Virus record (IMG/VR): IMGVR_UViG_3300020047_004730
Origin: an uncultured virus (IMG/VR IMGVR_UViG_3300020047_004730)
Taxonomy: Duplodnaviria > Heunggongvirae > Uroviricota > Caudoviricetes > Crassvirales
Reading direction: 5' to 3' (one strand)
DNA: 20,000 nt
The position numbers and the translations under genes are program-made. Below, piece by piece: positions 1 through 16,077 of this stretch (position 1 is the first letter of the stretch; the number at the start of each line of letters is the position of its first letter). The notes below the pieces were generated by a model. The model saw nothing but the letters and a program-made list of their open reading frames with translations, did no database searches and was not told the DNA's origin.

Positions 1-3000
1 TTAGCAGCAGGCTTAACTTCAGTAACAACTTCTTGTTTAGCTACAGTTGGTGTCGCTTTTTCTACTTTCGTAGTAGTAGCAGTTTTAGTTGCAGGCAACA
101 AAGGAGTTATTTTTGCATCGTACTTATTGTATATTTCGTTATACTTAGCTAAAACATCAGCTGGCATAGATTCCTTGTTTATCTCACCATCGACTTTGTA
201 TTCCTCTATATTAGGTATAGCTTCATTTAACTCTTGCTGTTCTTGAGCTCTTAAAGTTTTTACTTTTTCGCTATTGGTAGCCTCCTTGCTTTTAGAAGTC
301 TCCTTAACGTACTTTGTCTCTACTTCTTTGTATACAGTATCAAAGTCAGCTTGCTCTACAGTTCCAATCTCATTTTCTCTTTGCTTTATAGCTAAATCCA
401 TAGCTATGTCACCAGTAAACTTAGCTGTTGTTCCAAATCTATCTGTTACCGTTACAGCCGCAAGATTACCTGCATCATCAAATTCAAAGTCTCCTTCATT
501 TATCTTCATCGTAGGAGTGTCTAGAACAACAGTTTCACCGTTATCCATTACAGCCTCTGTTCTGCCTTTGTTTGATTTAAAGGTAGCAGGAACTCCGTTT
601 ACTTCTGCTGTTTGTCCTTCGAAGAATTTTTCTGCGCTGATTTTAGCTGTAGCAGCTTGTTTAGCAACTGGAGCTGTGCCTCTTTGGGTAACAGCGATAG
701 TTTCAGTCTTTGTTCTAAATTCATAGTTGTCTAGTTGTTCTGCTATATTCATTAATTTTTCAGACAAAGATTTCTTGGTCTGATCAGAATAATTTGCATC
801 GTTATTAATTGATTCTACTTCACTAAATATCGTATCTATAGTTGAATTAATTTCTGAATCGTTAATGTATTCAGCGTTATTCATCTTAGCCATTACGCTA
901 TCTATAGTACCACCTATTCTCTCGTTTGATCCTAGTTCTGAAATATAATTACTTACTTCTTGTGTTGCCTTAGCACCGAGTTCTTTTACACTTATGCTTT
1001 CGACAGCGCTATCGCCAGTATTTGCTTCATTGACCGTGGCTTCCCGTTGGATCCCTTCTCCTTGCCCGACTTTTTGTTGTCCTTCACTAGTTCCCTGATA
1101 TTCGACTGTACTACCTTCTGTTGTACCTTCTTGTTGCTGGATGTTGTCTTTTTTATTGGCATCTTCTGATATTTGTGTTAGTTTATTGTTTATTTCTGAT
1201 ATTCTAGCTTTTTGTACTGAAACAAGACTCTCATCTTTACCTGAAATTTCATTTTCTAATCTTTGTTTTTCAGCCAATAACTTAAATGATTCTGTCTTAT
1301 CAGTTACATTAGCTGGAATCTTATCAAGCAAACCTATAGAAGAATTTAATTCATCTATTTGATCTTTAGCTTGCTCTACTGTAATCTGATTATTTAAAAT
1401 TTTTGTCTTTAAATCATTTTCAAATACAGTTTTTACATTTGGATCATTTATTATTTTCTCTAATGTATTTATTTGATTTGCAGTTCTAACTTCCTTAGCA
1501 GTACTTATAGCCTGAGTAGTAGAAGACATTATCGTTCCTCCAAGAAGTCCTAGCTTATAGCTTTCAGACATTCTATCTACTATCTCTGGAAATGAAGGAT
1601 TTTTAAATACCTCTTGATCTTTCATTTCATTGTATGCATACTTTATCCCAATATCACCTAATTCCTGTAAGGCTTCAGTAGACGCTTCAACATTACCTTT
1701 AGCTGACAAGCTTATTACTCCCTTTGCAATTAATGCATTCACGTTAGTCTTTACAGCCTTATCTACCATTTCTTCAGTAGCATCCTTAGGTAAATCCTTA
1801 AATGCTTTTGCCATTATATATGATGTGAGATTAACACCAGCTGGACTCTTAGAAAACCATTTAGACATACCCAAAGACTCTAGCTTGGAAGATATATATC
1901 CATATCCACCACTTAATAATATCTTATCAGCTTCATCTATACCTGCAGTATCTGGGTCTGAATTTATTTGATCTTTAAAGTTTAAGTATGAGTTAGCAAA
2001 CAATCCTAATTGTTGAGGATTTAGAACAGCTTTTTTACCAAGTTGTTTCATTATCTCAATCCCTCCTTGTCTCCAAAATGATGATGTAGCAACAGATCCA
2101 ACAGCTCCTCCTATAGGCATAGAAGCTGCAGCACCTATTGATTCAGCCATTCCAGCCAATACTTTTTCAACATCAGATAATTTTGCACTTTTTGTATACT
2201 CATCAGACATTATTCCGGGAAGAAGATCTTGCCATGCATCATTTCTTGACACTGACTCATCATATATTCTTTTACCATTTATGTCATATGTAGGGGTCTT
2301 AGTGTAATCATCGATTTGCTTTAACATCTTAGGAAGGCTTACAAATCCACTAGCAAAACTAGAAATTATATTACTAGCCATGTCGCCTCTTAATTCTTTT
2401 GGAGTTGATGCCTCACCGATAATCTTTTCCATGGAATCATTATTTTCCATTATAGTTTTAGATTCATCGACAAGATTATCATATCTTTCCTTTAGCTGTA
2501 GCTTATTAGTTTTGTATGACTCATCATTTGTTATTTCATCATATTTTTCTTTAGTTATCTGACCTGAAACATATAAATTTTTTAACTCTTCATCTGTCTC
2601 TTGTTGTTTTTTCAAGTCATCCTTAAATACAACAGAATTAGATACAAATCTTGTTATATTTTGTTGTGTATCTTCCCTAACGTCAGTGGCATTTTTCTTA
2701 CCATACATTGCCATTGCATTATAATTATTTTGCAATGCATATCCTTTTCTGTAAAATTCTTGTTCTTTTATTTTAGAGTCAGTATCTGAAATTTCTTTTT
2801 CTATTTCATATGACGGTCTGCCAGCTGGATTTTTTAATTCATCAACTAGGTATCTTCTTTTTTCAACTAGATTATTATAGTCTCTAAATTCAAGATTGGA
2901 TTTTATAAATGACTTAAATATTTCTTTTTCATTTTCTGTTCCATCTAAGTCTATTACGATATCTTGAAGAGTTTTTTTGTTCGTTATTTTCAACATGTTA

Positions 3001-3656
3001 CCCATGCCAGCTTCTTCGAAATCAAATAAATCATATCCAATATCTTTAAAGCTTCTAGATAATTCATATACAGATTCTTCTTCTGATTTATTAACGTACT
3101 TAGATGCAGCTTCTGATATCTTATCTATCTTTTTTCTTTCTACTACAATAGGGTCATCATTCTCCATTACATTGAATGACTTTTTAAACAAATCTTGAGC
3201 TTGTTTTTGATCTACTGTAGCGTTCTTTTTTTCTTTCTGAATATCTGGTGTAGACGTAAATTTTAATTCAAGATTTTTCTCATAATCTGAATCAAATAAT
3301 TTTTTAGAATTTTTCTCTAAATTTGAAATTCTTTTATCAACATCTCCTTTATATAGTTTGATAAAATTTCCAGATCTATTTGTATCTACAAACCATTCAT
3401 TGCCCTTCTTTTTGTATACAGAGAACTCATTACCGGGAAATGAATATAATCCTTCAGGCTTTCCTCCAGAAGAAACCGAAGGCTTTTGCTCCTTCTTGGC
3501 TGGAGTAACCGATGAAGTAGGTTTTTGACCTGATGGAGAAAGTGATGCCGTAGGTTCTTTTTTTTTTACAGCATCTTCACTTGAGTATTTTTCCCAAGGT
3601 TTCTTATCTTCTGTTTGTTGAGAATATTTTTCCCAAGGTTTTTTTTCTTCTGACAT
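1..3656 (-). CDS. Giant internal virion (cargo/ejection) protein, >1218 aa, 3' end beyond the window
   Basis: ATG at 3656 (MSEEKKPWEKYSQQTEDKKPWEKYSS...). The frame reads open to the window edge (...QEVVTEVKPAA), which explains its absence from the ORF track. Coiled-coil-like K/E-rich stretches, Gly/Ala hydrophobic segments (LAGMAESIGAAASMPIGGAVGSVA) and EASTEALQE. Lies after two smaller ejection-type genes. Confidence 0.88.
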   Translation of the reverse strand, partial: MSEEKKPWEKYSQQTEDKKPWEKYSSEDAVKKKEPTASLSPSGQKPTSSVTPAKKEQKPSVSSGGKPEGLYSFPGNEFSVYKKKGNEWFVDTNRSGNFIKLYKGDVDKRISNLEKNSKKLFDSDYEKNLELKFTSTPDIQKEKKNATVDQKQAQDLFKKSFNVMENDDPIVVERKKIDKISEAASKYVNKSEEESVYELSRSFKDIGYDLFDFEEAGMGNMLKITNKKTLQDIVIDLDGTENEKEIFKSFIKSNLEFRDYNNLVEKRRYLVDELKNPAGRPSYEIEKEISDTDSKIKEQEFYRKGYALQNNYNAMAMYGKKNATDVREDTQQNITRFVSNSVVFKDDLKKQQETDEELKNLYVSGQITKEKYDEITNDESYKTNKLQLKERYDNLVDESKTIMENNDSMEKIIGEASTPKELRGDMASNIISSFASGFVSLPKMLKQIDDYTKTPTYDINGKRIYDESVSRNDAWQDLLPGIMSDEYTKSAKLSDVEKVLAGMAESIGAAASMPIGGAVGSVATSSFWRQGGIEIMKQLGKKAVLNPQQLGLFANSYLNFKDQINSDPDTAGIDEADKILLSGGYGYISSKLESLGMSKWFSKSPAGVNLTSYIMAKAFKDLPKDATEEMVDKAVKTNVNALIAKGVISLSAKGNVEASTEALQELGDIGIKYAYNEMKDQEVFKNPSFPEIVDRMSESYKLGLLGGTIMSSTTQAISTAKEVRTANQINTLEKIINDPNVKTVFENDLKTKILNNQITVEQAKDQIDELNSSIGLLDKIPANVTDKTESFKLLAEKQRLENEISGKDESLVSVQKARISEINNKLTQISEDANKKDNIQQQEGTTEGSTVEYQGTSEGQQKVGQGEGIQREATVNEANTGDSAVESISVKELGAKATQEVSNYISELGSNERIGGTIDSVMAKMNNAEYINDSEINSTIDTIFSEVESINNDANYSDQTKKSLSEKLMNIAEQLDNYEFRTKTETIAVTQRGTAPVAKQAATAKISAEKFFEGQTAEVNGVPATFKSNKGRTEAVMDNGETVVLDTPTMKINEGDFEFDDAGNLAAVTVTDRFGTTAKFTGDIAMDLAIKQRENEIGTVEQADFDTVYKEVETKYVKETSKSKEATNSEKVKTLRAQEQQELNEAIPNIEEYKVDGEINKESMPADVLAKYNEIYNKYDAKITPLLPATKTATTTKVEKATPTVAKQEVVTEVKPAA
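992..1162 (-). CDS. Nested (+1 frame) 56-aa basic protein MPIKKTTSSNKKVQQKVVQSNIRELVKDNKKSGKEKGSNGKPRSMKQILAIALSKA
   Basis: Hand translation: ATG at 1162-1160, TAA at 994-992. Resembles the small phage proteins of pattern MPLKKG...SENIRE...KQAVAIALSKA (DUF6496-like, from memory). A-rich upstream sequence. Local GC about 45% versus about 30% at 1201-1320. Confidence 0.7.
   Translation of the reverse strand: MPIKKTTSSNKKVQQKVVQSNIRELVKDNKKSGKEKGSNGKPRSMKQILAIALSKA
3454..3567 (-). other. A10 slippery run (3558-3567) and -1 frame extension KKKRTYGITFSIRSKTYFIGYSSQEGAKAFGFFWRKA*
   Basis: Zero frame reads GTA AAA AAA AAA GAA. The -1 frame is bounded by TGA at 3579-3577 and TGA at 3456-3454 and has no start codon. 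The zero frame over this stretch is S/P/T/K low-complexity. Confidence 0.6.
3586..3641 (-). repeat. 17-bp direct repeat, 39 nt apart, encoding tandem KKPWEKYS motifs
   Basis: tatttttcccaaggttt at 3586-3602 and 3625-3641. Confidence 0.9.
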
Positions 3657-3659
3657 AGA

Positions 3660-5222
3660 TTAATTTTTTTTCCAATTTTTCTTATCTGCAGGATCTCCAC
3701 CTAGAAATGTATATCCTTCTACCGAATCACCCTTTTTAGGTGTTTTACCGCCTGTACTTGTTTCTCCTGTATTCGTATTCGTGCTGCCTCCCGGTTTGTA
3801 GTAGTAATCACCGTAAAGTTTCTTGTAATCATCTTTTCCTTTATGATACAATGGAACATTACCTTTCACGTTTTTCAAGTACTGAGTCATTCCATCAGGA
3901 CTGTATATTCTTACTTTTTGATTAGCAGGCTTAATTTTACCATTACCAACGTCTATTTTTTCATCAATTACAACATAAGGATTTCCATCTTTGTCTTTAT
4001 ACCAGTTGAATGTATAGTTGTCAGTATCGAATCCTGCAAAATTTCCTTTAGAAAGAGCGTCAGCTGATGCCGTATATGCGTTAATAGCTACTTTCTGGTC
4101 GTCAGTACCTCCACCTCCACCACTGCTTGAATACGGCTGAGGTGCACTAGCTTGAATCTTAGTTTCAATCTGGTAGTCAATCTCTTTAGCAACTCTCTCT
4201 TTAGCTGCAGTCAGTTGATCGTTCGTAAGTACTGGAATCATTTCTCCAGCTGCATTCTTTTCAAACTTAATAAATGACATTTCAATTTTCTTCTTGTCAT
4301 CATCAGTAAATTTCTTTCCTGCTGCTTCGTATTCAGCCTTTGCTTTAGATAGCTCCTTAGATAGCATTGCATCTTTTTCGCTATCTTTTGAGTAGTAGTT
4401 TGCTGAATTAATAACGCCATTATCAACTAGTATACTAAGTGCTGACTTTGGGTTTGACGTTACTGCATTAGCAACATTTATCTGCATGAACTTATAATCA
4501 TCTTGATTTTTAATGCTTGAAACTGTTTTTTCACCACCTCTACCAAGCATAGTCCATTCATCTACACTCTTCCAGTTTCCAATAGCTCCATCAACAACTG
4601 AGCCAATGTCTACTCGATTTATCTGAAGGTTTTCTGGACGAGCAAAGTCACGGTAATCAATAAGTTCACCTACTGGATTTCCTGATGCGTCTGTCTCTTG
4701 TAAGTACATAGATCCATCATTACCCAATACCATCTTCTTGTTATTCAAGTCAGCCATCTTAAGGTATTCATTCATGTAGAATGACTCTCCGTCAGATGCT
4801 GCAACTACTCCATTAGCATCTGGAGTAAGTCTGTCTTGATAAAGCTTGAATCTTTCATCAGCTGTCTTTGCTTGGTCAGCAAAATTACTCCAGTATTCCT
4901 GTGCGTTTGCAAGAGTCTTCTTATAATCTGCAGTTGATATTTCTCTATTGTATAGCTTCTTCTTTAAATCAAGAGCCATCTTCTTGTACTTATCAGCTCC
5001 ATCAATAACGAAGTTCGTTAGCGTCTGCTTTTCAAGATTTAATGGTTTGTTTAATTTAGTAAGCGTATCTGAATATTGAGTTTCAATTTCTTCAATTGCC
5101 TTATCCCTATTCTTACCTATCTGAGATACTTCAGCTCCTAACTTAGAGGTTAGTGCAGCCCAATCTACATTGGATCCACGATCTCTATATTCTATATTTT
5201 GTAGTGTACTTTGTCCTGCCAT
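3660..5222 (-). CDS. Putative internal virion/ejection protein (520 aa)
   Basis: Helical N-terminus, Gly/Ser linker (SSSGGGGGT) and C-terminal mini-domain KGDSVEGYTFLGGDPADKKNWKK. Lies between the pilot-like gene and the giant gene. Confidence 0.75.
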   Translation of the reverse strand: MAGQSTLQNIEYRDRGSNVDWAALTSKLGAEVSQIGKNRDKAIEEIETQYSDTLTKLNKPLNLEKQTLTNFVIDGADKYKKMALDLKKKLYNREISTADYKKTLANAQEYWSNFADQAKTADERFKLYQDRLTPDANGVVAASDGESFYMNEYLKMADLNNKKMVLGNDGSMYLQETDASGNPVGELIDYRDFARPENLQINRVDIGSVVDGAIGNWKSVDEWTMLGRGGEKTVSSIKNQDDYKFMQINVANAVTSNPKSALSILVDNGVINSANYYSKDSEKDAMLSKELSKAKAEYEAAGKKFTDDDKKKIEMSFIKFEKNAAGEMIPVLTNDQLTAAKERVAKEIDYQIETKIQASAPQPYSSSGGGGGTDDQKVAINAYTASADALSKGNFAGFDTDNYTFNWYKDKDGNPYVVIDEKIDVGNGKIKPANQKVRIYSPDGMTQYLKNVKGNVPLYHKGKDDYKKLYGDYYYKPGGSTNTNTGETSTGGKTPKKGDSVEGYTFLGGDPADKKNWKKN

Positions 5223-5236
5223 AATATATCTATAAC

Positions 5237-5983
5237 TTAGTTATATCCACCTAATCCAGCAGGTGCTCCTGCATTCCATAAATAATCTCCAGCTAGATTG
5301 CTTGCACCCACTACAGGCGCTCCATAGTTAGATGTTACACTTCCAGAGTAATTAGCTACTGGATTACTGTATGCTTTCTTAAATGATTTGCGTGAAATAT
5401 TAGATTCATCCTTATCTTTCTTATACTTATATCTTCCTGTTGCTGGGTCAAAGTCTCCAGCTGCTGCTCCAATACCTGCTGCTGCAGCTCCTACCATTCC
5501 AGAAATTGCGTCATTCCTATTTGCTGAAGCTGTATTGAATTGAGTATTGGCTTGACCTATCTCATATCCTGCAGCTTCTTCTTGACGTCTTACTGCATCC
5601 TGACCAATTCTTGATTGCTCATTAGCCTTCAATAAGTCAGTCTGTGCATTAATTTCTCCTTGCTGTTGTGCAGCCTGAAGATTTGCCTCTTGTCCTGCCT
5701 GAACTAAGTTGGTTACACCCCCAATAGCTCCCTCAGCTCCGGTCTGAGATAGTGCATCAACTCCTTGAGACATAGCTCTTTGAGTTCTATCAAATTGTAA
5801 TGATGAAATATCTGGTGCTTGCAATGAAGCTAGAGCATTCTGCTCTGTAATATTTTTGTATCCTTGAAGTGCTGCATTTGATTTTGCTTGAGCTTCTTTC
5901 ATACGTCTGCCCTCTTGGACAGCCTGAATAGCACTCATGCCTAAACCTGCTAAAGATACACCTGCTGAAATAAGTCCGAACAT
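5237..5983 (-). CDS. Putative ejection/pilot-type internal virion protein (248 aa)
   Basis: Hydrophobic Gly/Ala N-terminus (MFGLISAGVSLAGLGMSAIQA), Q/A-rich coiled coil and a second Gly/Ala segment (GMVGAAAAGIGAAAG), typical of podovirus DNA-injection proteins. Confidence 0.75.
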   Translation of the reverse strand: MFGLISAGVSLAGLGMSAIQAVQEGRRMKEAQAKSNAALQGYKNITEQNALASLQAPDISSLQFDRTQRAMSQGVDALSQTGAEGAIGGVTNLVQAGQEANLQAAQQQGEINAQTDLLKANEQSRIGQDAVRRQEEAAGYEIGQANTQFNTASANRNDAISGMVGAAAAGIGAAAGDFDPATGRYKYKKDKDESNISRKSFKKAYSNPVANYSGSVTSNYGAPVVGASNLAGDYLWNAGAPAGLGGYN

Positions 5984-5998
5984 AGTGAAGATTTTAAC

Positions 5999-6015
5999 GC
6001 AAAGATAGTTAAATT
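5999..6015 (-). promoter_or_regulatory. Bacteroidota sigma70-type -7 promoter element (TATCTTTG) upstream of the ejection-protein genes
   Basis: Minus strand reads AATTTAACTATCTTTGC, an identical 17-mer to 6755-6771. Intergenic and matches TAnnTTTG. Confidence 0.8.
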
Positions 6016-6025
6016 TACCTTATCA

Positions 6026-6751
6026 TTAAGGATTTGACTTAAAAACATTTGAACTGATTTCAAATATCTCTACCTCGTCTTCTGAACTATTGGTTATTGT
6101 TACCTCCATCCATGCGCCACGAGCACCAAAACTCTCAGCCTGACTGGCTTTAACGTACACGATCAAGTCAGAAGATGCTGGTGCGCTGATTTCCGACACG
6201 AGAGTTATGGACTGAGCGTCATGTGAGGCTACCATTCCAACTAAAATTAGTGCGCCACCAACTACCTTGTAGATTGCATCTCCCTGACTGATCGATGTAC
6301 CAATATTAAAGTCAAAAGAAATTACAGGATTAGAGTATGAATCAACCTCCCCAATTCCTTGAGTTGATAATGCCCTATTGTCCCCGTCTCCAGAGTTACG
6401 TCTTATAAAGGCAAACCAATGTCCTTCCTTTTGAACGAACCAATCCTTATCAATTATTCCAGTATTTAAGTCTGTTGTTGCTGATAAATCCCAAACGTCG
6501 TTACTCTCCAATGAGATAGTCTTGAACATCTTAAGTGTTGTCGGCTCTTGATTAAAGAGCATTGTTATAGAAGAGTCATACTTAATATCGTAAAACTCAT
6601 TTCTAGTAGAATTAGAATCGTGCTTGTAAAGGCTTCCATCCTTCCATGTGTAGAATGTATTATTCATTCCAGTCATCCAGTCAGGAATAAAGGACCAAAA
6701 AGAGGTCCAGCCATTACCCGTTGGTGAATATGATATAGTCTTATCTGCCAT
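6026..6751 (-). CDS. Tail structural protein; stand-alone equivalent of the muzzle/stabilisation protein C-terminal domain (241 aa)
   Basis: TISYS..GWTSFWSFIPDWM...NNTFYT.K.G.LYKH, RNEFY, KMFKTISLES, F.QKEG.WFA.I and GARG.WM motifs recall the C-terminus of crAss-like stabilisation proteins. Confidence 0.75.
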   Translation of the reverse strand: MADKTISYSPTGNGWTSFWSFIPDWMTGMNNTFYTWKDGSLYKHDSNSTRNEFYDIKYDSSITMLFNQEPTTLKMFKTISLESNDVWDLSATTDLNTGIIDKDWFVQKEGHWFAFIRRNSGDGDNRALSTQGIGEVDSYSNPVISFDFNIGTSISQGDAIYKVVGGALILVGMVASHDAQSITLVSEISAPASSDLIVYVKASQAESFGARGAWMEVTITNSSEDEVEIFEISSNVFKSNP

Positions 6752-6771
6752 AATGCAAAGATAGTTAAATT
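6749..6771 (-). promoter_or_regulatory. -7 promoter element immediately before the ATG (probable leaderless mRNA)
   Basis: Minus strand reads TTG-N18-TATCTTTG-CATT-ATG. ACTATCTTTGCATTATG is identical to 16075-16091. Confidence 0.8.
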
Positions 6772-7682
6772 AAACAAGTATCAACCGACTGAACTAAGTC
6801 AAAGTATTTCTTCGAGCAGTGTTCATCCGAAAGCTCTAGCTCAATTCCATACGGTAGCTTGTCAATATAATCAGCCTTAAAGAACATTCCCCTATTTGGA
6901 CCAGACACCCCAGCATTATGGAAGAACGCATGTTCGTCCCATCTGTCAGTATGGCATGTAGCCCAGCTAAAGTTAAATTCTTTCGGACATACTGTCTTGT
7001 ATCCATTCTTCCATGCAGTCCAAAGTTCAGCCCACATTGATGCCGTCCATATCTGTATTCCGTACTGATGCCCCTCTGGCTTGATGTGAGCGACTTTCTT
7101 TAGAAGTTGGTATAGATTTACTGAATGAGCGTTTACCTCCCTCCAGTAGTCCTTATTTACGTTCTTCATTAACTTCTGTGCGCCACCTGAATTCTTCTCG
7201 TTAGACTCAACTAACGAACGATTGATTCCTATGGTCTGGCACATCATGTCAAGTACTGCCGAACCTTTGCTTTTAATATACTCCGATCCGATGTAACTTA
7301 CCGTATCACTGAAGTACCAAATGTCGTCCTGCAGGAATGGAGTGAAGTCGAAATATTTTGTGAATAAGAAGTCTGCATCATGGAAAAACAAGGCGCACTC
7401 AGATAAGTATGGGTGCAGTTCGAAGTGTTTATATAAAATTGCACTCTGCATGGCTGGTGCGTATTCACAATCATAATACTCGTATACGTGAATTTCCACG
7501 TCAGGGAATGCTTGTTTTAACACCGTCCATGACTTATCAACTCCAGAGCTTGACGTGTACCCTCCAAGTACAATAATATCTTCTGGATTATATCCCAGTC
7601 GAATGAACTGGGTTAAATATACCTCAACCTGCCAAGCATAATACTGAGTGGCAGGTTGAGCGCTAATTAGTTTTAACTGCAT
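6765..7682 (-). CDS. GT-A fold glycosyltransferase, HPAT/SERGT1 (GT95/GT96)-like (305 aa)
   Basis: Ordered motifs YYAWQ, EYAPAMQSAILYKHF, FFHDADFLF (DxD), GGAQKLM, WTASMWAELWTAW and FFHNAG parallel the YxxWQ, YxxxNKP, DxD, WxxEMY and late His motifs of plant protein O-glycosyltransferases. Overlaps the upstream gene by 10 nt. Confidence 0.75.
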   Translation of the reverse strand: MQLKLISAQPATQYYAWQVEVYLTQFIRLGYNPEDIIVLGGYTSSSGVDKSWTVLKQAFPDVEIHVYEYYDCEYAPAMQSAILYKHFELHPYLSECALFFHDADFLFTKYFDFTPFLQDDIWYFSDTVSYIGSEYIKSKGSAVLDMMCQTIGINRSLVESNEKNSGGAQKLMKNVNKDYWREVNAHSVNLYQLLKKVAHIKPEGHQYGIQIWTASMWAELWTAWKNGYKTVCPKEFNFSWATCHTDRWDEHAFFHNAGVSGPNRGMFFKADYIDKLPYGIELELSDEHCSKKYFDLVQSVDTCLI

Positions 7683-10546
7683 GTGTAAGATACTTCAGTC
7701 CATACATCTCCGTCCCATTGTTCGGATACAGTTTGAGTTAATTTTTGATACCATCCAGCATCCGCTTTTGCGCTACCGTCTGCTTTTTTAAATATGTTAT
7801 TCCCAGCTACTCCCATTGGTCCATCTATCCAGTATTCAGATATTGTACCATTACAAGACAATACTCCAGTAGTTCCGTATCTAAGAAGCATCCTAGTTAG
7901 TGGCGCTGCAGTAGTTGTGGTGGTTGTAGTAGTAGTTGTACTTGTTGTGGTTGTACTTGTAGTGGTGGTAGTTGTCGTAGTTGTTATTCCTTGACAGTCA
8001 ACACAGTTATCAAAAGTAAACAAAATTGTTGATATTGCAGGTCCAGATCCAGCGTATGAGTTTATTGTATAACAGGTTCCATTTACTGCCTTTACTACAG
8101 TTCCTAACGGTAGCTGTAATAATGCCTGTTCGCTAATAATAACTGATGGAGAAGCAGTTCCGCATGCCGTACAGTTATAGAACCAAGTTGGTAACGTAGT
8201 AGTAGTTGTAGTAGTTGTCGCTGAACAATTAACCACAGCTAATACCTGACCAAGCAGTCCAATTTGTATTACTATCCCAGTAGATACCTTGTACCACTTT
8301 GACAGTCCATTAAACGTAATAGTTCCACCAGCATCTGTAAACACAAAGTCTGAAACAGTAGGAACAGCTCCAGCTCCGTTATGATATCTAGTAGTCCAAG
8401 GAGCAGCTCCGTTATCGCAAGCTAGAGATGATGACACAAATGCATCGGCATCAATACTGAATGCTGTTATTGGAGTTGCTGTAGTTGTTGTGGTAGTTGT
8501 AGTTGTTGTAGTAACACTCAAACAAGTGTCGCAGTCAGCATACGTAACTACTGGATGCTCAATCGATAGGTATGGGAATGTAGCTGTAGTTACAGATGTA
8601 ATCGTCCAACAGTTACCGTCATCCGTCTTTACAATATCTGACACAATTACTCCTGATGTAGTCGCATCAAAAAGAACAGCCGATACAGTTGGATCAACAC
8701 AAGATGTACCCACAAAGTAATCACCTGTAGGTAATGTAGTTGTAGTTGTAGTAGTGGTTGTAGTTGTAGTTGTAGTTGTTGATGTAGGACACTCGTTCTT
8801 ACTGCAAACCTTACCTAACTCGTTTAGTTTTATAGAGTATGTCGCAGGGTCAATGCTGTACCAAACCCCTCCACCCATAAATGGCTCTAGTCCCTTATCG
8901 TCCTTGAATACGTGATCTCCTTCTGTCGGAACGTATCCAGCTCCATCGTGATACATTATTGAGTAAAGTGGAGAACTCAAAACGCATGCAGCATCCCCAG
9001 TATCAGCGAAGTTCTCTACGTCAATAAGGAATGGCTTCAGTTGGATATCAGTACCTACCGTTACAGTAAGTGACTTAACCACTGAGTCACCAAAACAGTT
9101 AGATGCCTGAACGTCAAACATAAATGTACAGCTGTCTGTAGGAGTTCCTGAAATACTTCCCGTATCGCTTAATGTTATCCCTGCAGGAAGTATGTCAGCC
9201 TGAGAAGGTCCAACAAGTGTCTGCGCTCCCGGTCCTCCTATAACTGCAGGTGTTGATGAGGAAGAAATTAAAGACGTAGTGTTTGCACTTACGGTTACCT
9301 TCTTCGCTTGATTGTCACATGATGTGTAACTAAATATTGTTCCAGTATCTCCACCCGTTAGCTCGTATGTATTACATGTTGCATTTACTATACTCCACGA
9401 TGTAGGATTTCCAGTTGCTAATAATTGAATGTTAACATTTCTTCCAACCAGAAGTGATAAGTCTTCTTGATGTATAAACGGTGGAGCAAACTCATTGCAG
9501 TCACACCCCCCATTAGCAAATACAGCTCCGTCGGATGCCACCCCAATATACGTACCTCCAGAAACAGGCGGTACAAGTAATGACGTTACTGATGTCTGGT
9601 AGTAAGCACCACCACCATCGAATAATACGTACTCTCCATTCTCTAATCTATAAATCCTATCTCCCGTTGTTGGAAGTAATCCAGCTCCGTCATGATAGTA
9701 TAACTCGTCAGCTACTTGAGAACAAACATTAGCTAGTGTTCCAACAGCTGAGTCTATATAAAAAGAAGTTAACGTAGGATCTATTCTCTCTAAGAAGAAT
9801 GATGTGTTGGTAGATATAGTTGTAGCATATACATTAGATACCCCAGTAGATAGGTGCTTACTGAATCTTAATTGTCCAGTTCCGTTATTTACTAATCCAT
9901 TATATGGAGCCACTAGTCCTATGTCTTCTGGACTTATACCGTCAGCAATTAGTGCTAGATAGTTAGCATTAGAATTCAATCCTACATACTTAGTGTCTGC
10001 TACTATTACGCCATTCCATTCTATCTGAACTCTAGTTGGCTTGTCAGGGATCACATAATCAATTCCAGCTCTACCTAAATCAGTTCCAAAGTCGCAATCA
10101 ATAATTCTTTCTGATCCTGCACCTAGGTAAGATACAACTCCGCTATCTAAATTATCTGAGTAGTCCCATATAACATACAAGAACGGGAGATCATCAGGAT
10201 TTAAAAATACAAATGTACCCTCATATCTTCCTCCATCCGTAGCACTATACACCACTGGTATCTCTGTAGCGTTTGATACTATCTCAGATCTATCTGAAGG
10301 ACCATACTGAATATCAGACACTAGGTAGTACACCTTGTTGTTTAATCCCGGTTGTAGCTTCTGATTTATTTTATTTGATCCATTTCCAGCAATTATATAT
10401 ACCGTATCACCATTTGCAGGCATATAATCTATACCACCTATGCCGTTTCTAGAGTCAAACAAAGATACGCCAGAGTCAGACAGATTGATTCTATCTATTT
10501 GATAGTAAGTGACTCCATCAGGAGAGTATGATTGATTTGATTGCAT
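7673..10546 (-). CDS. Modular virion surface/tail appendage protein with Ig-like domain, Cys-containing repeats and poly-Thr linkers (957 aa)
   Basis: Three YH[DN]GAGxxPTxxD modules plus a degenerate fourth, two CxxC-ending modules, a He_PIG-like domain (LPAGITLSDTGSISGTPT...VQASN), and four Thr tracts. Confidence 0.8.
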   Translation of the reverse strand: MQSNQSYSPDGVTYYQIDRINLSDSGVSLFDSRNGIGGIDYMPANGDTVYIIAGNGSNKINQKLQPGLNNKVYYLVSDIQYGPSDRSEIVSNATEIPVVYSATDGGRYEGTFVFLNPDDLPFLYVIWDYSDNLDSGVVSYLGAGSERIIDCDFGTDLGRAGIDYVIPDKPTRVQIEWNGVIVADTKYVGLNSNANYLALIADGISPEDIGLVAPYNGLVNNGTGQLRFSKHLSTGVSNVYATTISTNTSFFLERIDPTLTSFYIDSAVGTLANVCSQVADELYYHDGAGLLPTTGDRIYRLENGEYVLFDGGGAYYQTSVTSLLVPPVSGGTYIGVASDGAVFANGGCDCNEFAPPFIHQEDLSLLVGRNVNIQLLATGNPTSWSIVNATCNTYELTGGDTGTIFSYTSCDNQAKKVTVSANTTSLISSSSTPAVIGGPGAQTLVGPSQADILPAGITLSDTGSISGTPTDSCTFMFDVQASNCFGDSVVKSLTVTVGTDIQLKPFLIDVENFADTGDAACVLSSPLYSIMYHDGAGYVPTEGDHVFKDDKGLEPFMGGGVWYSIDPATYSIKLNELGKVCSKNECPTSTTTTTTTTTTTTTTTLPTGDYFVGTSCVDPTVSAVLFDATTSGVIVSDIVKTDDGNCWTITSVTTATFPYLSIEHPVVTYADCDTCLSVTTTTTTTTTTTATPITAFSIDADAFVSSSLACDNGAAPWTTRYHNGAGAVPTVSDFVFTDAGGTITFNGLSKWYKVSTGIVIQIGLLGQVLAVVNCSATTTTTTTTLPTWFYNCTACGTASPSVIISEQALLQLPLGTVVKAVNGTCYTINSYAGSGPAISTILFTFDNCVDCQGITTTTTTTTTSTTTTSTTTTTTTTTTAAPLTRMLLRYGTTGVLSCNGTISEYWIDGPMGVAGNNIFKKADGSAKADAGWYQKLTQTVSEQWDGDVWTEVSYTCS
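7910..7984 (-). repeat. Poly-Thr tract T9-S-T4-S-T10
   Basis: 25 consecutive Thr/Ser codons with mixed ACN codons. Confidence 0.95.
8195..8218 (-). repeat. Poly-Thr tract T8
   Basis: 8 ACN codons. Confidence 0.95.
8480..8512 (-). repeat. Poly-Thr tract T11
   Basis: 11 ACN codons. Confidence 0.95.
8735..8779 (-). repeat. Poly-Thr tract T15
   Basis: 15 ACN codons. Confidence 0.95.
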
Positions 10547-10549
10547 ATT

Positions 10550-13500
10550 TTATTTTTTAGGTGTTTCAGCGTTTAGTACTAGTGTTATTATCGTTCCCTT
10601 TCTACCTCTAGCTTGAGTTAGAATAAACGATTCAGTTAATCCGTCACAGTATGTAACTCTAAGCTCTACCTCTCTATTTATTGAAGTATTATTTACAGCC
10701 ACTTCTCCATAGATATTTTGAGATCCAGATCCAGATGTTGCGAAGTTACCTATCCAGTTAGTTCCAAATCCAATATTTACAGCTGTTATTGTCCAAGGAG
10801 AGTCAGTATTTATAGAGAATAGTAGGTATCCTAAATTATCTTTTGGTACGCTTAATGAGTTTCTACTTATCGAAAGTCTACAAGGTATAGATCTTTGAGA
10901 GTTGTTGCTAATCATGTACACATGATTGAATGGATCGTACGCACCTAACTTCTGAGTGAATGGATTGTCTCTCATCAAGTCTCTGAAGTAATCTCTCATC
11001 CCTAAAGACGATACCTCAACCATTGTATCTCCCTCCATTTGAAGTACCACACCGTTTCTAGGATCTGCAAACCACATTAAGTCACCCCATGTAGCAAATG
11101 ACTCTGGCGCATTACTTATCCCATACTCATACTGCATTGGTATTTGATTTCCAAGAACTTCTGGTATAGATGCTACCTGTCCTCCTCCAACTGAGTCAAA
11201 CAATACGTTCTTACCGTACAGTACTCTTGAAACCTTTTTCTCTTGAAATACTCTAAGGTCTGTATCTCTTGCATGAAGTTTTTGAATGCTTGCGAATTCT
11301 CTATCTAAGTACTTGAAGTTAGCAAGACTTAAATTAAATTCATTCAGTCTGTTATACTGTGTGTTCTCATTGTATATTCCACTGTAGCAAATTGATGCAT
11401 CATTTCTGATTTTCTTGTAGTTGTCAATTACCGTAGTGGCTCTTGGAGAGTATTCAATAGTTGTTTGATTGAAGTCATCATAAATACGGTCAGACTCCAA
11501 TCCATTTCCCCATGCCCAAGCATTATAGTCACAGTTTGGATTAGCTGGAGTATTTAACTCAATTACAGCTGCTTGATTAGATGATACAGACTGATCTTCA
11601 TTTGATGATCCTGACAATATAACAGGTCCTGCAGCTACTGATCCAGTCCATGTCTTGTCTATTATCATTTGATATCTATCTCTTGTTTGTAATACCTCAT
11701 AGTCAGTACCTGCAACAGTTACTATATCACCTACAGTAAAGTAATGAGGTCTAGACCTATCAGATAATCTTAGTCTTGTTTTTGCTGCTAATCCAGCATA
11801 TCCTAATGATGAAACATCAAACTTCCAAGTTACAATATGGTTTCCATTCTGATCTATTGGATACGTCTGAGATAACTCATGAAAAATGTCAGCGTCTGTA
11901 TTTTTTGGTGATGTCTCGCAAAGTAGAGGAGTATCAGTTTGTGCTATTGAGAACCTAACTACTATCTTATTTTCATCATTATCATCGTAACCAAATCCTT
12001 GTATAATCATATAAACAGGAGCTTGTACTCCACCTGAAGATATTCCTTGAGATATTACAAGTTGTGTATTTCCATCATTTGATGCATTAGAAGTAAATGG
12101 TGTAAATCCCCTTCTAAATGTAACTCCTCTTGAATTTGGTACATTTACACCATTAGTGTCGTACTGATCAAACTCAAGATACGCTCCAGATTCAACAAAC
12201 CATTCCTCTATATTTTCGTAGTATGAGCTAGAAGGTAGAAATTGCTGTATTGGTGCTTGTGCTACAGAGTTAAGAGAATCCTCAACTATCTGAAGTCTTA
12301 TGACTGCTCCCGGTTGAATAGGATCTGTAAATCCTGCATTTACAATTGCTCCACCTCCATATTGTCCCGGACTATATAATAAACTTTGAGATGGTAAACC
12401 AACTCCTCCAAAATAATTACCAGTAAGATTACCATTGCCTCTTACATTTATTTTCCAAACATCTCCAGATGTATAGTTAGATTGTGTAAATAAAATACTC
12501 ACATACGGTAATCCATCTCTATTAATTGTAACTGCAGATCCTTGAACTATGTTTGCTGCAGCAGACCATGGACCTGATCCATCTAATGATCTAGTATAAC
12601 GAAATTGATTGTTATTTAATATCTCTATGGTAAATCTTGTATCTACAGCATATAAATTAAGAGGTGTCGAACTTACTAATTGTAATCCACTAGAGTCCCC
12701 ATCACCATAATGTATAGGCTGTTCAACAGTTGCAAACCTACCTACTACTGGATATAATACAGCTCCAGCTCCCCATCCCGTAGACTCAATAGTTACATTT
12801 GTAATAGCTGACGGAGAGAATTGAGATAGTGAGTCAACCTTTATTTTAAAATATACACCCGGTATAGATCCAGATACAATTGCTCCAGCATTCTTTGACT
12901 CTAGCTCTAGTATCTTGTATTTCTTGTTTGACTGAGTTGGTCCATTAGGGTCTGATTTAAATATAATGTATTCACCAACCTTTACCTTGTCTACGTCTGA
13001 GTCATTAATCAAGAAGTATCGATATGCTCCACTTACATAGTAAAGTATTGGAAATACATTATATATCTTACTCTGACCTTGCTTTACTGCTATTCTATAG
13101 TTTGTCGCCCAACATGGAGCCGTGTGATTAATTCTTAGAAGCAACTGATTAGCCGAAGTTGAATTTGCTGGCGGTATATAGATAGAGTTAGTGTCACATG
13201 TAAGTGCAGTAGTAAGTCGTCCATACTCATCAGAATACAACAAGGCAAACTCAAGATCTCTATCCGATCTCCAAGTAGACATTGGGTTAAGAACTGTAGG
13301 TAATAGTGTAGGTTGTTTTATACCCAATGTAAAGTTGATATTTATATTATCACCATTACAATCAATTATATCTCTAAACTGCTCGTAGTTTCCATACGCT
13401 AGTCTATTACCTATTACGTCTTGAGCCTTTGCTAGTAATGGAACATTATCAAATAGTCTAGTCACCTGATCTGTAGGTAGTGCTGCTAAAACTCTGTTAT

Positions 13501-14446
13501 TCTTGAACGTAACAGTTACAGAGTCACCTGTCTGACTAAATCCCGGTAGGTTATCTTTTTCGTATGTCTCTACAATACCAACGTTCAAGCTTCTAGTGTC
13601 TCTAACTACTAATTGAATAGCCTTCACAAACTCGTTACCAGTCTCAAATGAAACCCGGCATGAGTTGTAAATATTTGTCATTGACTTATTGTTTCCTACC
13701 CCGTAGTCAAAATTATATTCATCAGGCATGAATGACACTGCTGAGAATGGAGATAGTGAGCTGTACTGATTATCTAAGTATAGGTATCTATATGCAAAAT
13801 AAAGGAATTTCTCCTCCATGTTGTTTGCCTCTGGATCAGATGAATCCAAGAACGGATCAATATGAGGTGCATACATTGGAGGATTAAGGATCACGTCAAT
13901 GTCTTTATCAATTCGTGCATCATCAATGTTATACCCACCGATACCGTTAGCTCCTGCCTTTACTCTTTTTATGTTTATTCTTCGTGGAGGGTTATAGTCG
14001 TCAGTCCAATACAAGAACGTATTCCCGTCTGGACCAATAATGTGATTTACTCCAGTGATTAAGTATTCCTTCTTAAAATTAAGTTTTGATGGAGTTGATT
14101 CGTTTGCCTTGTTTGACTGTAACACACGAACGGTTGTGCCTGTGTTCTCGTCGTACTCATAGATTCCATCAAAGAAGTCTCCAGCAACAAACCAGTACAA
14201 TAAACCTCCAGCCTCATACGTCACAGATCCAATCGTTCTAGCGTCTGTTGCGTTTCTACCTGATACAGCAGCTATGTTTGCCGCTATTGTATTTCCTATT
14301 GAGTTCTGTGCAGCTCCTACATTTGATCCGGTAGATGTCTCTACAGTTATGTTTTGGGCATCTCTGTATTGACCTTGAGGCACAAGTCGCTCATCAAGGT
14401 CTTTGTTCATTACTCCTTGTATAAATGTATTCTTAAGTTCTGCCAT
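10550..14446 (-). CDS. Muzzle / tail stabilisation protein (P22 gp10-like, crAss-like), 1298 aa
   Basis: N-terminus F..G.MNKDLDERLVP.GQYRDA.NI, YWTDDYNPPRRINI, FAYRYLYLDNQYSSLSPFS, FDNVPLLAKAQ, GNRL.YGNY, NGLES.RI.DDFN and YGIS..PESFA.WG are characteristic of this family. Confidence 0.88.
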   Translation of the reverse strand: MAELKNTFIQGVMNKDLDERLVPQGQYRDAQNITVETSTGSNVGAAQNSIGNTIAANIAAVSGRNATDARTIGSVTYEAGGLLYWFVAGDFFDGIYEYDENTGTTVRVLQSNKANESTPSKLNFKKEYLITGVNHIIGPDGNTFLYWTDDYNPPRRINIKRVKAGANGIGGYNIDDARIDKDIDVILNPPMYAPHIDPFLDSSDPEANNMEEKFLYFAYRYLYLDNQYSSLSPFSAVSFMPDEYNFDYGVGNNKSMTNIYNSCRVSFETGNEFVKAIQLVVRDTRSLNVGIVETYEKDNLPGFSQTGDSVTVTFKNNRVLAALPTDQVTRLFDNVPLLAKAQDVIGNRLAYGNYEQFRDIIDCNGDNININFTLGIKQPTLLPTVLNPMSTWRSDRDLEFALLYSDEYGRLTTALTCDTNSIYIPPANSTSANQLLLRINHTAPCWATNYRIAVKQGQSKIYNVFPILYYVSGAYRYFLINDSDVDKVKVGEYIIFKSDPNGPTQSNKKYKILELESKNAGAIVSGSIPGVYFKIKVDSLSQFSPSAITNVTIESTGWGAGAVLYPVVGRFATVEQPIHYGDGDSSGLQLVSSTPLNLYAVDTRFTIEILNNNQFRYTRSLDGSGPWSAAANIVQGSAVTINRDGLPYVSILFTQSNYTSGDVWKINVRGNGNLTGNYFGGVGLPSQSLLYSPGQYGGGAIVNAGFTDPIQPGAVIRLQIVEDSLNSVAQAPIQQFLPSSSYYENIEEWFVESGAYLEFDQYDTNGVNVPNSRGVTFRRGFTPFTSNASNDGNTQLVISQGISSGGVQAPVYMIIQGFGYDDNDENKIVVRFSIAQTDTPLLCETSPKNTDADIFHELSQTYPIDQNGNHIVTWKFDVSSLGYAGLAAKTRLRLSDRSRPHYFTVGDIVTVAGTDYEVLQTRDRYQMIIDKTWTGSVAAGPVILSGSSNEDQSVSSNQAAVIELNTPANPNCDYNAWAWGNGLESDRIYDDFNQTTIEYSPRATTVIDNYKKIRNDASICYSGIYNENTQYNRLNEFNLSLANFKYLDREFASIQKLHARDTDLRVFQEKKVSRVLYGKNVLFDSVGGGQVASIPEVLGNQIPMQYEYGISNAPESFATWGDLMWFADPRNGVVLQMEGDTMVEVSSLGMRDYFRDLMRDNPFTQKLGAYDPFNHVYMISNNSQRSIPCRLSISRNSLSVPKDNLGYLLFSINTDSPWTITAVNIGFGTNWIGNFATSGSGSQNIYGEVAVNNTSINREVELRVTYCDGLTESFILTQARGRKGTIITLVLNAETPKK

Positions 14447-15324
14447 TACTTGATTTGTTTGTTTTGTCCTCTCATTATCATCAACAAGTTGCCAGCCTTG
14501 ATGTTACTTAGTCTAAGCTTTAGGTTTCTAAGTAGTGATGATTTTTTATCTCTAGCCCGTCGAACTATGTACTCTTGTATATTAACCTTGCTGTCAAGTA
14601 TGCACCAAGTAATGTATGCGTACACGTACTTCTCAGCCATCTTATGGATTCTAACTTCTGAATCGTCTACCTCTAATCCATCAGATATGTACTCAAGAAC
14701 AACTCTTTGACCTGTAATATTATTTGCAAAGTCTATAACCCCTGACCGTTTGTTGATTGTGAAAGTTCCGTTGACATTCGCTCTGTCTGTCTCAAGTCCA
14801 AAACGACCGCCAGCTTGCCCGTCGAAGTACCAATTACCACCGAAACACCAGCCCATGCAATTGTTATAGACTCCGGGTCCAGAGTATAGAGACTGGTCAA
14901 GACGTCTGATGTCAAGCTCGGACTCACCCGTAATAACATTACCATTTATATTAAATGTTAGATCATTGTTAGCGTCTTGAACGTATGCAGGAGTTGATAT
15001 TCTAGATAAACTCTCTGACATAGGTAACAGTACGCCATTAATCTCTAGTGATAACTTAACATAGTTTACGTAGTCATGTGGTAGTATCATCTTTAAGTCA
15101 CTCCCAACTATATACTCTATGGACTTTGCCTCTCTTGACGTATCAAAGCTCATCTCTTTGACCGCTTCCTTTGCATAAAACAATGCCTTGTATCTTCTTA
15201 TATTGCTAATCAACTGATCATCCCCAACGTTAATTAACATGTAGTTGTTAACTAACTCGTCAAGAGTAACATACTGATAACTTCCCCAGTTAGCTGAATT
15301 TTGATAGTACTGCTGATCTGTCAT
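14446..15324 (-). CDS. Tail ring / tubular adaptor protein (292 aa)
   Basis: LPHDYVNYVKLS, VVLEYISDGL and IHKMAEKYVYAYI motifs. Directly upstream of the muzzle gene with a TAATG overlap. Confidence 0.75.
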   Translation of the reverse strand: MTDQQYYQNSANWGSYQYVTLDELVNNYMLINVGDDQLISNIRRYKALFYAKEAVKEMSFDTSREAKSIEYIVGSDLKMILPHDYVNYVKLSLEINGVLLPMSESLSRISTPAYVQDANNDLTFNINGNVITGESELDIRRLDQSLYSGPGVYNNCMGWCFGGNWYFDGQAGGRFGLETDRANVNGTFTINKRSGVIDFANNITGQRVVLEYISDGLEVDDSEVRIHKMAEKYVYAYITWCILDSKVNIQEYIVRRARDKKSSLLRNLKLRLSNIKAGNLLMIMRGQNKQIK

Positions 15325-15327
15325 CTA

Positions 15328-16077
15328 TTATGATTTTTGTTGATTGTCATTAACCTCTTCTGCCTGCATTAATTGAACTACGTCAGCCTCTTGTATAGAT
15401 ACTCCAGCTAACTTACAAATCCCAACTACTAACCTAGGTGCATCCGTGTATGGAAGCTCAAAGTCTTGGAAGTCACTTGCTGATTGATTAAATACTGGTG
15501 CACCATCAGAAAGTATTGTATTGTACGTCCACTTAGGATCAAGTGGGTATCTCAAGTAGTTAATAGTAACGTTTGCCGTTATTGACACTGGATAAACTTG
15601 TATGCCTTGAATGTCTGCTCCTGTAGCATACTCATTAAGTACATATACTGGGTATGTATTCGTAGGCGCAACCATACTTGATGAAAGCAAGTTTAGTATT
15701 TTAACTGGACTCACCTTCTCAATTTCTACAGTATTATTATACGTAAGTCTAATAATCTTGTATGGCTTCGCTTCTAATGGCTGTGCTGGATTATCTCCCG
15801 GTACATAGAACCTATCTGATGTATTGTTATAAACAAGCACGTCTTCAATCAAGAACTTATCCATTATCTCATGAAGTAATTCTGGAATGTCTGAGTATCC
15901 AGAGTTATGCATTCTAGCATTCTGCTTGTTGATTGCATTGCTATAGTCGTACATGTACTGACCAAATAAATCCAACTGAGTATGTCTTGCAAACAAGTTG
16001 AATTCCTCTGGTGTAATGTATCCACGATTGTCTTTACTTACTATCGCTAAGACCGTATTTCTGATAGTATTAATCAT
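15328..16077 (-). CDS. Tail ring / head-tail adaptor protein (249 aa)
   Basis: K.NRGYITPEEFNLFA..Q, YLRYP.DPKWTY and DFELP motifs, plus synteny. Confidence 0.75.
   Translation of the reverse strand: MINTIRNTVLAIVSKDNRGYITPEEFNLFARHTQLDLFGQYMYDYSNAINKQNARMHNSGYSDIPELLHEIMDKFLIEDVLVYNNTSDRFYVPGDNPAQPLEAKPYKIIRLTYNNTVEIEKVSPVKILNLLSSSMVAPTNTYPVYVLNEYATGADIQGIQVYPVSITANVTINYLRYPLDPKWTYNTILSDGAPVFNQSASDFQDFELPYTDAPRLVVGICKLAGVSIQEADVVQLMQAEEVNDNQQKS

Follow-up and report, generated by a model that had tools for sequence, protein, structure and literature searches.

A predicted glycosyltransferase encoded beside a poly-threonine tail-tip protein in an uncultured Crassvirales phage

We analysed a stretch of 20,000 nucleotides (the window) from an uncultured Crassvirales virus, IMG/VR record IMGVR_UViG_3300020047_004730, and concentrated on two overlapping genes within it. 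One of them, P0002, encodes a predicted glycosyltransferase of 305 amino acids (aa). The other, P0001, encodes a protein of 957 aa that carries four threonine (Thr) tracts. We observed that relatives of P0002 are accompanied by poly-Thr proteins in many unrelated phages, and this pairing is a real feature that did not arise by chance. Based on the linkage, on the predicted fold and on fusions present in relatives, we consider it likely that P0002 is a phage-encoded O-glycosyltransferase which acts on the poly-Thr linkers of P0001.

A preliminary description of this DNA, made from its letters, had reported the 957-aa protein with tracts of 15, 11 and 8 Thr and of 25 Thr or serine (Ser) residues, cysteine (Cys)-rich domains between the tracts, and a 10-nt overlap with a 305-aa protein bearing a DxD motif. 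All of these elements were found in the sequence, at the following positions.

6765..7682, minus strand: P0002, 305 aa, predicted soluble enzyme of GT-A fold, family phrog_4417
7371..7379, minus strand: codons of the DxD motif, D102-A103-D104 (HDADF), directly after the strand at residues 97-101 (alignment and model)
6918..6920, minus strand: invariant His255 in the strand at residues 253-255, candidate third metal ligand (66/66 relatives)
7673..10546, minus strand: P0001, 957 aa, proposed acceptor (translation; phrog_21885, E 3.9e-16)
8735..8785, minus strand: Thr tract 1, residues 588-604 (TS, then T15 at 590-604)
8480..8512, minus strand: Thr tract 2, residues 679-689 (T11)
8195..8218, minus strand: Thr tract 3, residues 777-784 (T8)
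7910..7984, minus strand: Thr tract 4, residues 855-879 (25 residues, 23 T and 2 S)
7673..7682, minus strand: overlap of the P0001 stop and the P0002 start, 10 nt, ATGCAGTTAA

Given this arrangement, translational coupling of P0002 to P0001 is likely.

Linkage of the P0002 family to poly-threonine proteins

Homologues of P0002 were detected by tblastn in 75 phage records, including phages of Lactobacillus, Enterococcus, Staphylococcus, Lactococcus and Clostridium and one phage of Chryseobacterium. We opened eight loci of cultured phages, and in all of them (8/8) Thr runs were present on the major capsid or major tail proteins or in a neighbouring gene; the identity of capsid and tail proteins was taken from annotation or from size and position. 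In Enterococcus phage phiFL1A, the C-terminus of the major tail protein gp50 reads TTTTTSTTTTTTSSTTTTTTT, and the homologue, gp51, comes directly after it. The gene upstream of the homologue in Chryseobacterium phage MA9V-3 bears TTTTTSTTTTTTSSTTTTTT.

For uncultured viruses, we used the best 80 of 589 confirmed IMG/VR loci that contain the family, and we considered open reading frames (ORFs) of at least 100 aa. Runs of at least six Thr were found in 66 of the 80 family loci, compared with a single one of the 80 random loci (Fisher p = 2e-29). The random loci were viral loci drawn via an arbitrary 14-mer, and the family was present in none of them (0/80). The expectation that homologues are tied to poly-Thr proteins was thus borne out, across unrelated phages. 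Of the 14 family loci without such a run, 2 had tracts of mixed Thr and Ser. When runs of at least six identical residues were counted in the 80 family loci, Thr accounted for 333, Val for 81, Gly for 7, Ser for 2, Leu and Pro for 1 each, and all other residues for 0; the Val runs come from the antisense frame of the Thr tracts. The linkage was strongly positional, as Thr runs were present in the ORF directly upstream of the enzyme on the same strand in 58 of 79 loci, compared with 28 of 827 other same-strand ORFs.

The linked proteins were diverse. There were 103 ORFs with Thr runs in 75 loci, and BLAST divided them into 34 clusters, while the domains of P0001 itself were found directly in only 21-28 loci. 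On the tree of the enzyme, presence and absence of a Thr-run ORF switched at least 10 times. Further acceptor candidates included a tail-tube protein extended by a Thr tract, a Fib_succ_major protein and a protein with a Gly-rich domain. In one enzyme clade, the sole Thr-run genes were small ones located approximately 9 kb upstream (L050 713-1096, L060 472-885 and L080 546-983; 128-146 aa, with the runs near the C-terminus).

The reverse direction was assessed as well. Ten ACN codons were used to fetch 79 loci, 54 of which truly encode at least eight consecutive Thr in an ORF. The family was present in 6 of these 54 loci (E<=1e-96), directly downstream of the poly-Thr ORF in 5 of them. Further, we compared 22 loci that were anchored on the gene of the muzzle, a tail-tip protein, and that had at least 4.5 kb of downstream DNA. 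Both genes were present in 16 loci, neither in 5, the poly-Thr gene only in 0 and the enzyme only in 1 (p = 2e-4). The enzyme-only locus had linkers of mixed Thr, Ser and Pro at the same places.

A scan with the single P0002 protein gave one match in a bacterial genome, located on a contig of a gammaproteobacterial metagenome-assembled genome (L416 5483-8957, 40% identity). Directly upstream of this homologue there is an 810-aa ORF with nine Thr runs.

Fold, conserved residues and fused relatives of P0002

The only family matched by P0002 in PHROGs was phrog_4417, whose function is unassigned there (E 2.4e-58; residues 4-301 on positions 2-292 of the 293-position profile). Seven homologues from cultured phages match the same family at E 2e-78 to 4e-156. 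At E<=1e-3 the P0002 family comprised 770 representatives of 50%-identity clusters. Its 368 clusters at 90% identity had 'hypothetical protein' as the sole source name among the 120 listed, and the members that we found were annotated as hypothetical or in uninformative terms, e.g. 'prophage pi2 protein 34'. Searches by sequence or profile against Pfam, NCBIfam and PDB gave no real match for P0002, and further rounds of homologue search brought up no named or Pfam-annotated distant relative except one GT2 fusion. In PDB, the search summed weak matches between 31 residues of P0002 and TAL-effector repeats; no single stretch was significant and we rejected the match as chance.

We aligned P0002 relatives (alignment A1, 66 sequences) and predicted the structure on this alignment. 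D102 was conserved in 65 of the 66 sequences and D104 in all 66, while G167, M216, H255, G258 and K269 were invariant (66/66). The candidate role of His255 as a metal ligand is one that we assume from GT8 enzymes. The AlphaFold2 model was confident (predicted local distance difference test score, pLDDT, 96.4; predicted template modelling score, pTM, 0.93). It consisted of a single Rossmann-like alpha/beta/alpha domain with GT-A topology, and the DxD motif was located at its canonical place, the end of strand 4. A GT-A fold had been supposed for this protein before the model was made, and the model bears it out.

Foldseek detected 268 matches of P0002 in PDB at E<=1e-3, with TM-scores of 0.40-0.53 and identities of 9-15%. 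Among the matches listed, the top rows were all GT-A enzymes (WbbM, XXYLT1, UGGT, alpha3GalT, LgtC, XXT1, GTA/GTB, GlyE and COLGALT1). The best structural matches were sugar transferases of GT8, GT24 and GT6 type, which were ahead by 3-4 Z units. In BFVD, the nearest annotated neighbours of P0002 were viral GT8-like transferases, and the closest relatives were 'uncharacterized'. Judged by the model, P0002 is nearest in fold to the retaining families GT8, GT24 and GT6, and by sequence it belongs to none of these families. The maximum of its hydropathy (Kyte-Doolittle, 19 residues) was 0.79 and there was no transmembrane segment; therefore P0002 should be soluble. We propose metal dependence because the predicted GT-A fold occurs together with the DxD motif, and P0002 is probably a metal-dependent glycosyltransferase.

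Long relatives provided further information. We scanned 30 P0002 relatives of 400-1160 aa with Pfam and observed known transferase domains beside the family domain in 11 of them, 9 of these above the Pfam cut-off. The partners were GT2 (6 relatives), GT6 (2), Glyco_transf_7C (2) and GT25 (1), and a DXD sugar-binding region was also present in 2 of the 11 fusions. The GT25 hit was just below the cut-off, as was a methyltransferase domain detected in one long relative. Such fusions would be expected if the family acted as an initiating transferase and other phages extended its product. One long relative, P0141 (658 aa), was fused to radical-SAM and SPASM domains, a hint that the family may also function in loci for peptide maturation, away from virions.

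The poly-threonine protein P0001 and the split muzzle gene

P0001 is the sole ORF in the 54,979-bp genome with a run of at least five Thr. The Thr codons of its tracts are mixed (ACA 25, ACT 24, ACC 7, ACG 2), and the longest exact DNA run of period 3, 6 or 9 spans 17-23 nt, compared with tract lengths of 24-75 nt. Orthologues with 48-96% identity kept the lengths of the tracts (17 or 16, 11, 8-10 and 25 residues) and differed in codons synonymously. Because the lengths are constant while the codons change synonymously, these data support selection on the Thr residues and on tract length at the protein level, with the DNA repeat not being the target. The preliminary description had drawn the same conclusion from the mixture of codons.

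The N-terminal half of P0001 (residues ~1-510) was conserved among orthologues. Within it, residues ~431-505 weakly matched, by profile (E 0.0026), the N-terminal domain of two Bacteroides alpha-galactosidases, 4nzj and 4ogz; we take this domain to be Ig-like. The C-terminal half contains five Cys-containing domains of 70-87 residues joined by the four poly-Thr linkers, and P0001 has 24 Cys in total, in agreement with the Cys-rich domains noted before. The domains alternate between two types followed by a terminal one (D1 matched D3 at E 1.6e-11 and D2 matched D4 at E 0.008). AlphaFold predicted five small beta domains for residues 505-957, with pLDDT of about 90 or more. Values below 50 were present in only four segments (model residues 85-99, 177-184, 273-279 and 351-375), which are the Thr tracts. 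The pTM of this model was 0.29, therefore the domains are predicted to have no fixed mutual arrangement. The model suggests that the C-terminal half resembles beads on a string, in which the Thr tracts would serve as disordered linkers. No solved structure matched the bead domains in the fold search, and tblastn with the C-terminal half gave zero matches among 50,697 phage records. Every Thr tract was followed by a boundary with a hydrophobic residue and Pro (TTT-LPTG, TTT-ATPI, TTT-LPTW and TTT-AAPL), which was kept in the orthologue consensus. This boundary may be a part of the linker or a recognition signal.

The window corresponds to bases 20763-40762 of the virus record, the completeness of which is estimated at 90%, and it contains a virion gene block in which every gene is encoded on the minus strand. 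P0001 and P0002 are flanked by two genes that matched the Pfam muzzle profiles PF25731 and PF25729.

10550..14446, minus strand: body of the muzzle (tail-tip) protein, 1298 aa (crAss_MUZ; phrog_14478; phi40:1 gp097)
6026..6751, minus strand: 241-aa protein with the muzzle C-terminal domain (crAss_MUZ_C)

The 1298-aa ORF matched crAss_MUZ in its N-terminal 169 positions only (E 2.1e-12, 46.5 bits, cut-off 27) and matched phrog_14478 in PHROGs (E 3.8e-178). It was 32% identical to gp097 of Cellulophaga phage phi40:1, a structural protein verified by mass spectrometry, across 91% of its length. The closest cultured relatives of this muzzle are structural proteins of Cellulophaga phages phi40:1 and phi38:1 (Pervagoviridae), Maribacter phage Panino and Flavobacterium phage elemoA (32-36% identity). 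Since the nearest cultured relatives infect Cellulophaga, Maribacter and Flavobacterium, the host is probably a flavobacterium.

The 241-aa ORF matched crAss_MUZ_C (E 7.9e-14, 52.3 bits, cut-off 27). It shared 36% identity (E 1e-43) with residues 1083-1327 of the phi40:1 muzzle, which is a single chain, and it matched residues 1241-1470 of elemoA as well. In both of these phages the muzzle is one chain and its last ~240 residues are homologous to the 241-aa ORF, while here the crAss_MUZ_C domain is encoded by a separate ORF. Therefore, by sequence comparison, the muzzle gene is split in this phage, and P0001 and P0002 sit within the split. No P0002 homologue and no Thr run was found in the muzzle region of the three cultured relatives that we compared. 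In the relatives L368, L382 and L406, which are free of the cassette, the muzzle C-terminal domain ends a separate protein of 332-564 aa.

In the uncultured relatives L034-L036, a single ORF of ~2070 aa comprises a muzzle part (1-1199) and a P0001 homologue (~1208-1966), and the enzyme gene follows. P0001 follows the muzzle protein here and is fused to it in those relatives, hence gene order and fusion identify it as an accessory to the crAss-type muzzle of the tail tip. This sharpens its previous designation as a tail protein. In L089 (10867-15309), one ORF begins with an N-terminal stretch of ~590 residues, presumably the start of the muzzle, and continues with P0001 from about its residue 105. 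L089 is a near-identical relative, with a 292-aa neighbour gene that is 99% identical, and its ORF reflects either a deletion of ~3 kb or chimeric assembly of the metagenome.

No enzyme family in Pfam or PHROGs was matched by any of the 13 other large ORFs in the window, and so the view that P0002 is the only enzyme-like gene among the structural genes holds for these databases. A scan of positions 5000-15500 gave no promoter or terminator signal above chance (29 promoter-like sites compared with 36.7 in shuffled sequence, and 7 terminator-like sites compared with 4.6). An open ORF at the window edge (3-3656, minus strand), which continues in L340 11-7546, is a part of a 2511-aa DUF7178 protein; this protein occupies the slot in which relatives have giant structural proteins (phi40:1 gp101, 1691 aa). 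The phage also encodes a 528-aa Cpn60/TCP-1 chaperonin (G000 C1 3702-5288, locus L338; Pfam E 9.6e-47).

Proposed function, alternatives and known systems

From the genes, tracts, fold, motif, linkage and fusions described above we infer how the pair could work, including catalysis, acceptor, donor, stereochemistry and biological role. P0002 would be translated by coupling directly after P0001 and would draw on a host nucleotide sugar; Pfam searches of the rest of the genome found no sugar-nucleotide enzyme and no other transferase. The sugar would be moved to hydroxyl groups in all four P0001 poly-Thr linkers in the cytoplasm, before or during tail assembly. P0002 is probably retaining and its product an alpha-linked monosaccharide; the alpha linkage is proposed because the nearest folds are the retaining GT8, GT24 and GT6, and one sugar per Thr because the genome has no second transferase. 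Glycosylation may extend and stiffen the linkers and shield them against proteases, as it does in mucins and in the linkers of cellulases, and in this way the small domains of P0001 would be held out from the muzzle at the tail tip.

Several observations weigh against this proposal. In the literature searched (subscription journals and supplements were outside the search), no glycan, mass shift or activity was reported for any member of the family. In 12 of the 80 family loci there was no Thr-rich ORF in the fetched DNA, which measured 14.5-21 kb in 6 of the 12; therefore the partner is not always near or not always poly-Thr. Six others fall within a clade in which related loci carry a small Thr-tailed gene ~9 kb upstream, farther away than the fetched DNA extends, and a distant upstream partner would account for these six. 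Many of the 80 loci share descent, as one single-linkage cluster contains 64 of the 103 acceptor ORFs, and a part of the linkage is thus due to common ancestry. Finally, 48 of the 54 poly-Thr ORFs from the reverse search, all in viral contigs, had no family member within 10 kb, so poly-Thr does not require the enzyme.

The loci without a partner and the shared descent would fit an enzyme that glycosylates another acceptor, such as glycans of the host envelope, the DNA of the phage or a different virion protein, with poly-Thr as a co-inherited part of the cassette. Phage transferases that act on DNA or on the host O-antigen are well established (PMC12619734). We consider such an acceptor unlikely, because the linkage extends over unrelated proteins of all 34 clusters, including the C-termini of capsid and tail-tube proteins in Firmicutes phages, and because the partner gene is immediately adjacent in the majority of loci (58/79). 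Moreover, the enzyme lies within structural modules, outside those of DNA metabolism or lysogeny, and P0002 has no membrane segment for work at the envelope. It is quite improbable that the Thr tracts receive a group other than a simple sugar, i.e. a sugar-1-phosphate, as with Stealth/GlcNAc-1-phosphotransferases, or a nucleotidyl group. The advantage of 3-4 Z units belongs to true sugar transferases of GT8, GT24 and GT6 type and the fusion partners are glycan-extending transferases, against a very weak match of Stealth_CR2 in 2 of the 66 relatives (best E 0.079).

The numerous poly-Thr ORFs without the family nearby (48/54) are also what would be seen if the tracts were plain flexible linkers or were modified by the host, and if P0002 were a non-catalytic assembly factor or chaperone; the predicted disorder of the tracts would be the same with or without glycans. 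However, the DxD, His, Lys and Gly-Ala-Gln residues are invariant or nearly so across relatives with 30-70% identity, which argues for catalysis, and the family has been fused repeatedly to transferase domains of active type. The tracts are pure Thr, not mixed Gly/Ser/Pro, and have a fixed length despite synonymous change, which points to a specific readout of Thr. An unmodified or host-modified linker beside an inactive P0002 is accordingly very unlikely, and we retain O-glycosylation of the P0001 linkers by P0002 as the preferred explanation.

A broader proposal has, in our estimation, about an even chance of being correct. Poly-Thr would be a portable glycosylation tag that is read by one dedicated family of soluble phage enzymes, on any virion protein that gains a Thr run, e.g. 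at the C-terminus of a capsid or tail-tube protein, in a fibre linker or in a muzzle appendage. Phages of Bacteroidota, Firmicutes and Proteobacteria would then build mucin-like surfaces with a two-part system, the product of which is extended elsewhere by fused GT2, GT6 or GT7 domains.

In the literature that we found, mycobacteriophages are the only phages whose own enzymes have been shown to glycosylate the virion. If the proposals made here are true, many phages carry mucin-like glycoprotein surfaces, which would amount to a form of virion glycosylation that is widespread yet undescribed. It would bear on virion stability and protease resistance, on adhesion to mucus or polysaccharide, on antibody recognition of therapeutic phages, and on discrepant masses of capsid and tail proteins in proteomics and cryo-electron microscopy. 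In addition, a short homopolymer tag and the one soluble enzyme that reads it would offer a simple orthogonal tool for cytoplasmic O-glycosylation of recombinant proteins. For the phage studied here, the proposal implies a sugar-coated element at the tail tip, encoded in the split muzzle gene; this slot is swappable and is probably related to host contact.

The preliminary description had likened P0002 to plant HPAT and to SERGT1. Like HPAT (GT95, PF23452), P0002 would glycosylate hydroxyl side chains in repetitive extended proteins. PF23452 was detected below threshold in 2 of the 66 relatives (21.9 and 11.2 bits, gathering threshold 23.9; best E 1.3e-4), the best match being collinear (9-242 on positions 9-230 of the 307-position profile). 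In a protein atlas, an HPAT-labelled set contained 22 of the 30 closest named clusters, and the listed cluster carries the HPAT name on ~10% of its members. P0002 itself did not match PF23452 at E<=1. HPAT enzymes of the Golgi have a type II membrane anchor, whereas P0002 has none, its proposed acceptor is Thr and not hydroxyproline, and its closest folds are GT8, GT24 and GT6 and not the plant enzymes. No solved HPAT structure turned up in the fold searches for comparison. The part of the HPAT label that remains is a distant kinship, which is possible as a weak lead from profile matches. A SERGT1/GT96 family did not appear in the general Pfam scans, and no targeted comparison with it was made.

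Compared with GT8-type LgtC (1g9r) and glycogenin (1zcu, 3u2t), P0002 showed identities of 9-11% and TM-scores of 0.4-0.5. The Pfam family Glyco_transf_8 was not matched by P0002 (E<=0.01) and was not among the families listed for the 66 relatives (E<=1), so the modelled resemblance to CAZy GT8 is one of fold only. Streptococcal and staphylococcal serine-rich repeat adhesins are glycosylated by GtfA/GtfB and by GT8-type extenders such as GlyE (5gvv/5gvw). These adhesins are bacterial, consist of Ser-rich dipeptide repeats and are exported by accessory Sec, and their initiating enzyme has a GT-B fold. The system described here differs in being phage-borne, with pure Thr tracts and a single predicted GT-A enzyme, and has no homology to it at the sequence level. 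No chain of GT27, the mucin-type polypeptide GalNAc-transferases that act on tandem repeats rich in Thr, was among the top matches listed for P0002, which, unlike GT27, has no lectin domain. Mucin-type GT27 and A64R of PBCV-1 (2p6w) belong to eukaryotic and giant-virus systems, unlike tailed phages, and the capsid glycans of PBCV-1 are N-linked. We regard glycosylation of serine-rich repeat adhesins, of mucins and of chlorovirus capsids as functional analogues of the proposed system.

The nearest precedent is in mycobacteriophages, whose virion glycosylation was reportedly described by Freeman et al. in Cell Host Microbe in 2023. Virion glycosylation in mycobacteriophages Che8, Corndog and Myrna is treated in three citing articles (PMC12619734, PMC12363180, PMC11256854). 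As there, a phage-encoded transferase would decorate the virion proteins of the same phage in the cytoplasm. Che8 gp108-gp110 have domains of the types GT2 with methyltransferase, GT2-like and GT25, and the types GT2, GT25 and methyltransferase recur in the fused P0002 relatives (the last two below the Pfam cut-off). The enzyme family is unrelated to that of Che8 (hhalign of the A1 profile with gp110, probability 0.1%), and no mycobacteriophage was present among the 75 phage records with a P0002 homologue. The Che8 transferases are encoded at the far genome end, away from their acceptor, unlike P0002, and the Che8 capsid and tail proteins, unlike P0001, have no Thr tract and end in ...NKTGS and ...YSDGS. 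The literature searched contained nothing on this enzyme family, on phage transferases with poly-Thr tags or on HPAT in connection with bacteriophages, in line with the earlier statement that no such enzyme-substrate pair was known from Bacteroidota phages. In summary, these comparisons suggest that the enzyme family and the type of acceptor tag are new, while phage-encoded virion glycosylation as such is already known.

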